A stretch of 64,000 nucleotides of DNA, taken from assembly GCA_951406725.2 (NCBI GenBank), contig OX597825.1:71548001-71612000 (forward strand). The letters are read 5' to 3'. The translations under genes and the position numbers were made by a program. Every line of letters begins with the position of its first letter. The stretch's first letter is position 1. Positions 3,083 through 39,390 of this stretch are shown piece by piece. The notes under the pieces are model-generated. The model saw only the letters and a list, made by a program, of their open reading frames with translations, did no database searches and was not told the origin of the DNA. The DNA is from Octopus vulgaris. Lineage: Eukaryota.

Positions 3083-4284
3083 CCTATTAGTATACAATAC
3101 GTCTAATAGTATACAGTATAGAATGATGTGCAAGAGAGAACTTCTATGCTAGGCTTCACATATGAGCAAAGGAATGGGAAAAATTTAGATGATATTATTT
3201 CAAGACTAAATGCTCTGTTACCCTTTGTTACTTATATGTTTTTATATGGTGTCTATTGTTCTTTACTGAGACTGAGACAATAAAGGTTGCTGATATCCTA
3301 TATCCTCTTATTGCTAAAATTATATCCATTAAAAAAAATCTATTAGTTTTCTTTGTTGAAACTTGCATAATAACCAATTCAAACATATAAAATATGTAAT
3401 CAATCAAGCAAGGGATCGCAAAAAAAGTGTGCAAATATACATAAGCTTACATGTAATTACACAAACAAGCTCAAATTACAAAATACATGGCTATGTTAAT
3501 GTTATAAATATAATAGGATGAAAGAGATATACATCTAGAAAGGAAATTTCTCTAAGACAACTAAATACACATGTCTGGGTCAATTACAAGTAGGACAGAG
3601 AGATCGGATCAGATAAAATAGATACAAATACAACTTGCATGAGAACTGCATTGAACTAAATGGACACCACAGTTATTAATGAAGGAAGGGTCAGAAATGG
3701 TGATTACTGGTAGTAGCAATTAGTTGAATGTCAGCTGAAGAACTGAGCCACAAATATGACCAATGATTGGGTGTGAGCAACCAAAAGAAACCATATATAT
3801 GAAAGTGTATATGTTTGTGTGTGTGTGTATATACACACACACACTTGGCTCTGGGTTCAATCACACTGTGTGGTACCTTGAGCAAGTGTTTTCTACAATA
3901 GCCTTGGACTGACAAAGCCTTATGAGTGGGTTTGGTATATGGAAACTGAAGGAAGCCCATCTTATATGTGTGTGTATGTATCAGTGTCTGTCCCCTTCCA
4001 CCACTTGGTAACTGGTGATCGTGTGTTAACGTCCCTATAACTTAATGGTTCAGCAAAAGAGACTGATAAAATAAGAACTAGGTTTCAAAAAGGTAAGTCC
4101 TAAGATCGATTTGTTCAACTAAAACAACCCTTCAAAACAGTGCCCCAGCATGGCCACAGTCAAATTACTGAAACAAGTAAAACACACAAACACACACAAA
4201 CATACATCCTTTTCCCAGATATTCTCAAACTTATATAAATGTGAGGTAGCCATTTAGTAAGATACTTATGCTTGTCCTTGGCAT

Positions 4285-32331: not shown

Positions 32332-32482
32332 CTTTGAGTTTAACAATCTCCATTTCTTTTTCTTGCTTTAACTGCATATATTCCTGATTTCTGTTCATAT
32401 CTTTTTGTCTGTTGTCTTCAGAGAATTTTTCATATTTTTGTTGTAGTCTATTGTACTCATTCTCTAAATCTTGATGTTGAGT
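32332..32482 (-). CDS. Internal exon of coiled-coil protein gene (TQHQDLENEYNRLQQKYEKFSEDNRQKDMNRNQEYMQLKQEKEMEIVKLK)
   Basis: Acceptor ttttttgccacttcag, donor gtatgc; 151 nt, phase 0 to 1; heptad-like E/K/Q/L-rich sequence; lies within track ORF 32234..32494. Confidence 0.88.
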
Positions 32483-33112
32483 CTGAAGTGGCAAAAAACC
32501 AGATCAATTTATGAGATTATAGTTACGAAAATAGAAATGGCTACATAGTGAAATCTTTTATTTCTTATTCCTTTATGTTTCAGTCATAGGTACATATTAT
32601 GTTAGTTTCTTTTGACAAGCTGCTAAGTTAATGGGATGTAAACAAACCGACATCAGTTGTCAAACAGTGATGTGGGACAAACACAAAGGCATGCACACAC
32701 AAACATAAGGGCTGCCATACAGTTTCCATCTCCCAAATCTACTCATAAAGCATAGATCTAAGAATGTGGTTTATTAAATGTGACTGATGGAGTGTCAACT
32801 GAATGAAATGTCACCTTGCAGTAAATAAATTAACATCTCAGTGCTGTTGCATGAATTACAGAGTTATATTTTGTATGTTTGACACAATCCAGTATTTATA
32901 CTATCAGCCAATATAATTAATTGATCCTTGAAGGCTGAATATCTATGACCTATTGGACTGAGTAAATAGAAATAAATAAATAAGTAATAATAAATTAATA
33001 GCATATGATTGATGACGTGATAGAAATAATGTAACCCAGAACAGACACTAAAAGAAATAACACATTGTACATTTGCTTAATCCCTTGTCCATATTGAGTG
33101 ACATAGTAGAAG

Positions 33113-33350
33113 CAAGGTGGCAAGCTGGCAGAAATGTTAGCACGCCAGGCGAAATACTTAGAGGTATTTCGTCTGTCTTTATGTTCTGAGTTCAAATTCC
33201 GCCGAGGTTGACTTTGCCTTTCATCCTTTCGGGGTTGATAAATTAAATACCAGTTACGCACTGGGGTCAATGTAATCGACTTAATCTCCTTGTCTGTCCT
33301 TGTTTGTTCCCTTTATGTTTAGCCCCTTGTGGGCAATAAAGAAATAAGAA
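33113..33350 (+). mobile_element. SINE family B, full length
   Basis: tRNA-like head aaggtggcaagctggcagaaa...gagttcaaattc, central gactttgcctttcatcctttcgggg, tail aataaagaaataag. Confidence 0.85.
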
Positions 33351-34274
33351 GCATGCTGAGTCCATAACCCAGAGGCTTGTAAATCAAATCTGCAATCTTT
33401 GACGAAATAGATACTATTTTTTGATATTTATACATTGCAGTTAAGTTGTCTAGAAGTATACCAACCATATACATGTATATATACCTACAGGAGAGGTACA
33501 GATTACCTTAGAAATTTGTACAGGGTCAAAGGGTCACCAACAGAATGTGCAGCAAAACCCAAATTGCATAATGGACAAAGATGACAACAGGGGTTTTTGC
33601 TTAGTATATAGGATTATTAATGATGATTATCATCAAAGAATATAATAAGAAGAATCAAGCACAAGGACTGTGAGAATTACATGAAAATAATATATTTTAT
33701 TTTACTTGTTTCAGTCATTAGACTGTGGCCATGCTGGGCACTGCTTTGAAGAATTTTTAGTCGAATGAATTGAGATCAGAACTTATTTTTTAAAGCCTAC
33801 TATTTATGCTATCGGCATCTTATGCGGAACTGCTAAGATACAGGGATGGAAACAAACCAAACACCAGTTGTCAAGCAGTGGTAGGGGACAATTATAGACA
33901 CAAACACAAACAACCCCCAACACACATGAACAATGAGTTTCTTTCAGTTTCTGCTTGCCAAATCCAATTATGAATTTGGTTGGCCTGGGGCTATAGTAGA
34001 AGATGCTTCCCTAAGGTACCACACAGGGGGATCAAACTTGGAACCATGCAGTTAAGAAGCAAACTTCTTACCACACAGCCATGCCAGCACATATATATAT
34101 ATATATATACATATCCAAAACTTTGTAGGAATGACTGAGAAGAATATATAAAACTAAATATAAGAAATAAGAGCAAATAGTTTCCTTTTTAAATAATTTC
34201 ATTGAAAAAAGTTCTAATCATATCATGGACGTGAATGCCATCCACAGCAAACTAATTATCTTAAATTGCATTAA

Positions 34275-34305
<31 letters not shown>

Positions 34306-35240
34306 AAGAAGCAAATTAATTACATTTTTTTGTCAGTTTTGTTGAATTATTTGTATCACCTATGCCTTGCAGATAACATAGAAGATGAGTTACTGTCAAG
34401 GACAACTTAATTATAATGCAAGAAGATAATCCCTGCTCCATGCTAATGAAAACTAAAAAGGAATACCAAATGATAAAATTAAAACACTCAGGCAGATAAT
34501 TAATGAATTTAAATGTGTTTCATCACAAGCAATATTATCTTTTACACTGGTGAGGTTCTGCTGATTACAAAGAAACAACACATGGGACGTTCACTAGAAC
34601 TATTCTACTAAATTAGCCCAAAGGTTTTACATCATCAATAACTGCGATGAACAACTTCAAACATTTAGTTCAGGATTCAGAATGAAGCTTATTTCTTCCT
34701 GTTATTACCAGTGTTCCGTTATGGAACTTTTTGTTTTAGCTTTTGTTTATATAAACAAACCAAGTGTTATTCTGGACTGAGTTTTTCTAGTATAATGAAC
34801 CCCCACCACTTTTTCTGTTCTTTTTTTGAAAAAAAAAAAAAAAAAAGGAAAAAAAAGAAAAAGAAATGGCAAATTCTTTGCAGAATTACAGATCTTGTGG
34901 ACTGCACCATGTCATTTTAGCAATTGCCTATGTTCCATTGTCCTGCTAGATCAAGGCTGATCTGGAACGACAACAACAACAACAACAACAATAGCAACAG
35001 CAGCAGCAGCAACAACACCATCACTGCTACCAACACCACCAACAATGCCACTACTACCACTGCTGCCACCACCACCACCACCAACAAAAGTGTTATGAGA
35101 TATTCTTTTTCTAAAGTGAACTTGAGAGAGAATAAGTCTACCCACTGAAATGTTTCAAGCACCTCTACAGCAATATGACTAAAGTAGCAGAAAAATGGTT
35201 AGGCATATTTCCATATTTGATGGCATAAATAAATGTTGGA

Positions 35241-35400
35241 AGGGCGTTCACGAGATGCACGCCGTCGATACGGCGACGCGGTCCGTCCCGTAAAAAACCC
35301 GAAAGATGGCAAACTGCGGCTAGCACGGTCGCCCGTAGCTCCGCCGCCCTAACGTGCCCGAAATCGAAAGAACGAACTTGAGCGTGCGGTCTCGCCCACG
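35241..35400. other. Compositionally foreign CpG/GC-rich island with predicted secondary structure, identity unknown
   Basis: About 26 CpGs in 160 bp inside a CpG-poor AT-rich intron; ends complementary (gagatgcacgc / gcgtgcggtctc). Confidence 0.8.
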
Positions 35401-35724
35401 TATCAGCTGCACCCCAATTTCAGCAGCACAGCACATATTCAGGAAGAAAAGTTCTTAAAGCATGCAATGTAGGGCCAACTCTGCAAATGGGAACAAAGGT
35501 AATTTCTTTTCTAAAGACATTTTGGTGGGTAAAAAAATGTCATACATGTCACTAAAAATGGTAAATAGAAAATTATGCAACACCATAAAAAATTCCAAGA
35601 AAGAGAAAAACAAAAATAAGCTCTCTGACCACCCATACTAGAACAGGAAAATAGATGTAATACAGAGATATCAATAAAATAAAAAAGTTTTTTTAATACA
35701 AAGAATTAAAAGAAAACTACATAC

Positions 35725-35778
35725 TTGTAACATTTTATGCTTTTGTTCAGCTTCTGAAAATCTTGCAGCTAGTTCTTG
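35725..35778 (-). CDS. Internal exon of coiled-coil protein gene (QELAARFSEAEQKHKMLQ)
   Basis: Acceptor tatgtgtttcag, donor gtatgt; 54 nt, phase 0 to 0; charged helical composition; joins the next exon in frame. Confidence 0.8.
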
Positions 35779-38406: not shown

Positions 38407-39278
38407 ATTGGGTTGACAGATAAATTTTTCTGTTTCTTTCCAATTTAATTTTAATTAACGCAAAAAATATTTTTATCAAGTGTTTTATGGCTTTTTCTGT
38501 TGTTCTATTCTTCCTCTACAAAGAACAAAAAAAAAAAAAAACAGTATTTTTAACATGAGCTTCATTTTACTTTAAATCTAGATTCCAAAGCTGCCAAAGT
38601 TGCCAGAGACATTTGTGCTGTATATGGAGAAGGCGCTATTACTGAAAGAATTGCACAGAAATGGTTTTTGTGCTTCAAGGATGATGAAATTCAACCTCAC
38701 AGAACCTCTCTGTTCCAGCCATGCTGTTCAGTTCAATGAGGATTGATTGAAAAAGCTCATCAAAGATGATCTGTGCCTATCCACGAGGGAACTGACCTAG
38801 TAAAAGAGATGCTCTCCTTTTACGATTGCCCATCACCTTCATTCAATGGGAAAAGTCCAAAACCCCAACACAGGGACAATGTGATTCTTCATCAAAATGA
38901 CATACCTTCACATTGCTAATTTGACCAAAAATGCTATTCAAAAGCTTGACTGGAAAGTTCTACCATGCCTAGCATATTCTCCTGATATAGCACTCTCAGA
39001 TCACCATTTTTTCAGTTGTTCTCCAACAGTCTGTGAGGCATTTCATTCAACAACACAGAGCTGAGATCATAAGTCAATGAATTCTTTTGAATTTTTTGAG
39101 TCCTGGTGATTTTGAAACCTGGTGATTTCAACCATCAAGGCAATGACAAACTAGTGGAATGTTGACAAGAAGTTGCAAACAATGAAGAGTATATTACTGG
39201 CTGACTTGTTAAAATTGTTGATGGAAAATGAAGATTAAAAATAAATGGAAGAAAATGAGTTTATCCAAAAATCTGATA
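38407..39278 (+). mobile_element. Decayed, internally deleted mariner transposon
   Basis: SKAAKVARDICAVYGEGAITERIAQKWF (HTH) and LDWKVLPCLAYSPDIALSD (YSPDLAPSD motif). Confidence 0.88.
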
Positions 39279-39340: not shown

Positions 39341-39390
39341 TCTGTCTTTGTAATATTTTTCTTTCATATTTGATTTTTCTAAGTTTATTT
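39341..39390 (-). CDS. Internal exon of unidentified coiled-coil protein gene (xINLEKSNMKEKYYKDR)
   Basis: Minus strand: strong acceptor tttttttcttttgcag and donor gtaagt; 50 nt, phase 1 to 0, open and in frame with exon 35725-35778. Confidence 0.7.

Follow-up and report, generated by a model that had tools for sequence, protein, structure and literature searches.

The host intron and its CpG-rich island

The window, i.e., the whole stretch of 64,000 nt that was analysed, carries on its minus strand a gene for a coiled-coil-like protein, and a sharply bounded CpG-rich island lies within one of its introns. The exon structure follows from one contig of run X9, a run whose RNA status is guessed, which joins the exon at 35725-35778 to those at 39341-39390 and 32332-32482. 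For the gene product, Pfam yielded no match below E 0.02, and the protein-cluster atlas returned only a generic coiled coil with low recognition. The features of the locus are, in gene direction:

39341..39390, minus strand: previous exon of the host gene; a loose end of the X9 contig matches
35725..35778, minus strand: 54-bp exon of the gene for the coiled-coil-like protein; lies upstream of the insert when read along the gene; spliced in the X9 contig
32483..35724, minus strand: host intron of 3242 bp holding the insert; exon joints in X9 contig 27, GT and AG ends
35207..35492, no strand assigned: old low-copy dispersed repeat interrupted by the insert; ~80% identity to four other places
35236..35398, plus strand: inserted piece of a 45S rDNA intergenic-spacer subrepeat; 163 bp, 25 CpG, 98.2% donor identity
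32332..32482, minus strand: next exon of the host gene; a loose end of the X9 contig matches

CpG counting gave 26 between 35241 and 35400 (160 bp, 62.5% GC), confirming the number of about 26 in the original prediction; the next-highest 160-bp stretch elsewhere in the window has 15, and the window median is 1. Also in agreement with that prediction, no second stretch resembling the island was found elsewhere in the 64,000 nt, and the insert shows neither a target-site duplication nor a tail, with poly(A) and AATAAA absent as well. Its edge lies 326 bp from the donor splice site of exon 35725-35778, where about 325 bp had been estimated, and all ten of the tested pairing words that had been named for it (its ends, a hairpin and crossing pairs) are present in the island. 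The island is sharp, as described, but its proposed limits of 35241-35400 have to be corrected: the inserted bases proper span 35236-35398 and the homology to the donor 35233-35402. Elsewhere in the window, a decayed stretch at 38540-39230 reads like the remnant of a putative mariner-type transposase, judged from its motifs.

Origin in the 45S rDNA intergenic spacer

A search of the animal's own genome, as suggested for a copy-number check, returned 206 matches to the island, the best with 98% identity over 35233-35402. The best donor copies, in G000:C33, are 98.2% identical over 170 bp with three differences, and 22 of the 465 matches in five fetched array regions are full-length. The window sits on C12, and donor copies are found on C33, C20, C5, and C1. 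Rfam places 18S, 5.8S, and 28S genes next to the repeat clusters on C5, C1 (two places), and C33; on C5, the 28S gene ends at C5:100920872, the repeats occupy 100923347-100928211, and the 18S gene starts at C5:100930120. The spacer copies on C5 run in the same direction as the plus strand of the window, and the plus strand of the island is rDNA sense and antisense to the host gene. In the C20 array, a single unit of 18.3 kb contains 18S, 5.8S, and 28S genes as well as spacer repeats, as identified by BLAST to the C5 genes. Spacer repeats also occur in contigs of all DNA runs examined; across the island, contig depth exceeds that of the flanks by a factor of thousands, a value that is not a copy number. 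No run recorded as RNA was among those listed for the island, and the guessed-RNA run X9 contains one low-depth spacer-repeat contig, which is no evidence either way on expression.

Judged by sequence identity, the source of the island is the host's own 45S intergenic-spacer subrepeat, neither LSU rRNA nor foreign DNA. Thus, of the proposed recently acquired foreign or rDNA-like fragment, the rDNA-like nature and the recent arrival hold, whereas the foreign source and the LSU rRNA do not. The high CpG density of the island follows from that of the donor itself, the CpGs of which are kept. CpG density and sharp edges together likely reflect GC-rich rDNA placed in an AT-rich intron, where CpG decay has lacked time.

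Compared with the best donor, the island has one homopolymer length change among its three differences, and two of the three also occur in assembled array copies. The minority variant G>A at 35352, one of these two, is present in two C33 array copies versus 40 majority copies in the five regions, and is also found in the off-array copies L054, L055, and L056. The T>A at 35337 is absent from all five array regions checked.

The spacer consists of 190-bp tandem arrays nested in super-repeats of 1.24-1.43 kb, each of which opens with a copy of a block that we call promoter-like from the layout alone; a fifth copy lies 1.6 kb before the 18S gene. In most cases (12 of 17 places measured), the start of the donor type lies ~300 bp downstream of a promoter-like duplicate, and the donor repeat is similar to the sequence preceding the last promoter-like block (0/500 shuffles). 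This placement of donor repeats between promoter-like duplicates, with putative start sites, would fit a Pol I enhancer repeat. The spacer promoters and enhancer repeats described for Xenopus, Drosophila, and mammals (PMC12326227, PMC3036644, in the portions cited here) have a similar layout to that of the donor spacer, with its five promoter-like blocks and 190-bp repeats between them; in contrast to the rDNA of those animals, start sites and enhancer role are here putative, being read from layout alone. A map of this animal's rDNA spacer is a by-product of our analysis, and the titles and abstract openings listed by our literature searches included no octopus or cephalopod spacer map or description.

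Several further observations concern the rDNA itself. The host 18S gene spans ~2.6 kb and the 28S gene ~4.9 kb (L038, L049; G000:C5, C1), well in excess of the Rfam model lengths of 1831 and 3401. In G000:C33, ~174,500-232,500 (L042-L048), ~58 kb of spacer super-repeats carry 52 promoter-like blocks, with no Rfam rRNA match in L042-L047, and an inversion lies near 232,500, directly ahead of an 18S gene. These super-repeats resemble the spacer-derived satellite of tomato as it is presented in the part of PMC2679016 cited here.

Empty alleles and junctions

The site was compared in 8 of the 24 runs listed, drawn from seven studies and comprising five samples labelled organism A and single samples labelled B, C, and D. 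In all eight, single-copy contigs that lack the island bridge the site and extend 47-136 letters on their shorter side. In X1, X2, X9, and X10, position 35235 is joined to 35399 with six other letters between, and in X4, X5, X7, and X8 it is joined to 35401 with eight letters between. Relative to the closest alleles, 163 bp (35236-35398) thus stand in place of 6 bp, and copy L071 of the old low-copy repeat has the same six letters at the matching place. At both junctions, a few bases are shared by host flank and donor:

35233..35235, plus strand: left junction microhomology of 3 bp; the donor match begins at 35233 and empty alleles keep the host sequence to 35235
35399..35402, plus strand: right junction microhomology of 4 bp; the donor match ends at 35402 and the empty alleles of X1, X2, X9, and X10 resume at 35399

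The 4-bp microhomology is valid only for the allele type of these four runs. In random host/donor pairs, the joint chance of at least 3 and at least 4 bp is 0.0004, or 0.0007 in either order.

The flanks in X2 are identical to the window over 136+474 bases (610), and the event is therefore young. No contig bridging either filled junction was found among the contigs listed for the eight runs, and contigs drop rare variants; hence, the filled allele is known from the assembly alone and no carrier demonstrates polymorphism. It is probably rare or private, and the insert is a possible population marker. As a separate observation, X4, although labelled organism A, groups over 35152-35538 with runs labelled B and C rather than with X1 and X2 in its flank variants and in the eight-letter form of the site, indicating either a deep allele or a label difference.

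Proposed mechanism of insertion

Taken together, we consider it quite probable that the island is a 163-bp copy of a host spacer subrepeat which was recently used to patch a germline double-strand break and which is probably without function. A double-strand break would have arisen in the intron in the germline and would then have been joined to a spacer fragment, supplied as free DNA, by a template switch or as a copy of a spacer transcript. Joining would have proceeded by microhomology-guided end joining or template switching, with loss of six host bases. We infer this likely course from the donor, the empty allele, the 6-bp loss, the two microhomologies, and the lack of a target-site duplication or tail. 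These junction features would fit classical as well as polymerase-theta end joining, and a DNA as well as an RNA template. The donor start ~300 bp after a promoter-like block may allow an RNA route, without showing it, and an RNA template used without endonuclease cutting is a possible part of the best explanation. One base counts against a break patch, namely the T>A at 35337, which the checked arrays lack.

The site resembles the class 2 templated sequence insertion polymorphisms (TSIPs) of Onozawa and Aplan, which are characterized in the cited parts of PMC5110952 by microdeletion, microhomology, and the lack of a target duplication and of a poly(A) signal or tail. Likewise, the donor lies at a distant locus (C12 versus C33, C20, C5, and C1), the allele is empty in 8 of 8 runs examined, and 6 bp are lost with 3 + 4 bp shared and no target-site duplication or poly(A). 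The 163 bp also fall within their experimental range of 73-414 bp. In contrast to the class 2 TSIPs, for which the screen required unique donors (PMC5110952), the donor here is a multi-copy rDNA spacer repeat; moreover, the animal is not human, and the filled allele comes from an assembly alone. Double-strand breaks in yeast are known to take up rDNA as donor sequence, which, in the sections cited of PMC11372161, is captured by end joining with microhomology, as we propose here. The yeast breaks were induced and the genes tested (PMC11372161), whereas the octopus case is a natural animal allele with an inferred pathway.

Alternative explanations

The original prediction had listed an assembly or contamination artefact among its options. 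In this case, an assembly or polishing error would have written a piece of the high-coverage spacer into a single-copy site, or would have taken a somatic or chimeric long read as consensus. Such an error would agree with the empty site in 8 of 8 runs and with the lack of a filled junction among the contigs listed. In addition, the best run reaches a fraction of 0.77 of the words sampled, close to the value expected from flanks and shared donor words, and one donor difference is a homopolymer length change. However, the insert cleanly takes the place of six bases, its two ends show microhomology (3/4 bp), and the host flanks are otherwise intact; the genome also contains scattered spacer pieces of this kind that are older and more diverged. 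It also carries a minority spacer variant common to independent off-array copies: since G>A (35352) is shared with L054-L056, an insert made by error is less likely to carry it. We therefore regard the artefact as unlikely, with the missing filled-junction contig as the part of that proposal that stands, and the clean junctions and the minority variant as what speaks against it.

A break patch is also preferred over a class 1 event, in which a retrotransposon would have copied a spacer transcript by target-primed reverse transcription. The donor start ~300 bp after a promoter-like duplicate (12/17) lies where spacer transcripts would run, and other animals are known to produce RNAs from spacer promoters (PMC12326227, in the part cited). 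Class 1 (LINE-mediated) insertions are defined by a target-site duplication of at least 5 bp and a poly(A) tail with its signal. The insert has no target duplication, poly(A), or AATAAA; six host bases are gone, and the empty allele already contradicts such an event at this site, making it very unlikely.

Even less probable is that the island serves as a functional structured ncRNA or as a regulatory CpG micro-island of the host gene, both of which had been suggested for it. The hairpin words do exist in the island, and the 5′ half of the donor is similar to sequence located upstream of what is presumed to be the Pol I gene promoter (0/500 shuffles), so that the island might bind Pol I factors. 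Yet folding of the plus strand reaches a z of -1.18 (25/200 dinucleotide shuffles equally good) and that of the minus strand -0.70 (46/200), i.e., the level of shuffles on both strands, an outcome which the original prediction itself had named as speaking against it. Rfam gave no match on the island at E<=10, which also leaves the suggested comparison with LSU_rRNA_eukarya negative; on the donor super-repeat it gave chance-level matches only, with no LSU_rRNA_eukarya (RF02543) match at E<=10. The empty site in 8/8 runs examined also speaks against a structured ncRNA and against a micro-island, the CpG density of which is simply that of the donor. On the gene strand, neither a GTRAG donor word nor a pyrimidine-tract acceptor word is introduced by the insert, and with no obvious splice word added it is likely neutral.

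Relationship to 28S rRNA

The remaining proposal, a diverged 28S fragment or foreign (contaminant) rDNA, can be practically dismissed. It would draw on a short exact match to the host gene and on a second short colinear block that appears in lenient alignments:

35297..35310, plus strand: 14-bp word identical to the host 28S gene, at ~position 1206 of the 28S stretch used; chance-level

Words of 14 bp were reached by 110 of 2000 shuffles. Ancestry from 28S was assessed by local alignment under 3+5+3 scorings, with a profile of 119 copies and by the longest-word test, none of which was significant. Local alignment was not beyond shuffles (41/300, 181/300, and 205/300); in a further comparison of the island 86/150 shuffles were as good, with 17-112/150 across five scorings, and 26 of 150 shuffled targets matched or beat the 119-copy profile. 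The colinearity with LSU rRNA domain II claimed in the original prediction is therefore not upheld: the 28S likeness stays within the shuffle range throughout, and the CCGTAGC motif, which is absent from host 28S, needs a base private to the island, which all assembled array copies checked lack. A foreign source is contradicted by the 98% identity to host spacer repeats that are found in all DNA runs examined. As immediate source of the island, 28S is refuted by the spacer identity and the shuffle-level 28S scores.

A more remote connection is conceivable and seems doubtful to us: the 190-bp spacer repeat might descend from a piece of 28S coding sequence that was recruited as a Pol I enhancer-like repeat, with its transcripts patching breaks genome-wide. 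Such an origin is possible because a different stretch of 28S is present in the same spacer as a decayed copy. If true, regulatory spacer DNA would have been built from rRNA coding sequence. No 28S-derived spacer repeats figured among the titles and abstract openings listed by our literature searches. The decayed copy is a tandem copy of host 28S 3289-3453 in the 5′ spacer (L037:1366-1586; C5 spacer 494-714) with 73-82% identity (E 7e-11 and 3e-8). This part of the 28S gene holds the R2 retrotransposon target. A 141-bp x10.7 repeat that follows the decayed copy weakly resembles it (4/500 shuffles).

Dispersed spacer pieces in the genome

Exact-word searches yielded 132 and 192 places, from each of which the first 100 were taken, so that solitary copies are undercounted. 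Among those listed, 18 places lie outside both the known arrays and the window. Nine of these are short solitary spacer pieces of 50-378 bp with 86-99% identity (L053, L055, L056, L058-L060, L063, L068, and L069), and the other nine are pieces of at least 1.5 kb. Dispersed rDNA fragments, including IGS, have been described in human (Robicheau et al., PMC5381670), and, as in the cited parts of that report, the octopus pieces are short and long, include spacer, lie far from arrays, and are of mixed ages. Unlike the human pieces (PMC5381670), the insert in the window is a very young event with empty allele and junctions resolved, which at this site favours the patching of a break over the gradual decay of an entire rDNA unit.

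The island adds to the dispersed rDNA fragments as an insertion of an ordinary type; it is not a new RNA gene. As a break patch, it would represent a young, junction-resolved example of patching by rDNA spacer in an invertebrate. It also serves as a warning that an isolated CpG island in this genome can be debris of the spacer that repeat libraries overlook.

Overall, the fragments L052-L069 are 77-99% identical to the spacer and are spread over C1, C2, C4, C6, C9, C10, C11, C12, C16, C20, C21, and C27, and several of the short ones lie in or beside AT microsatellites. One of them, a 49-bp piece at L056:2950-2999 (G000:C21 near 36,822,450), lies between 17-bp direct repeats that overlap the end of the piece by six bases, which suggests a templated insertion with duplication.
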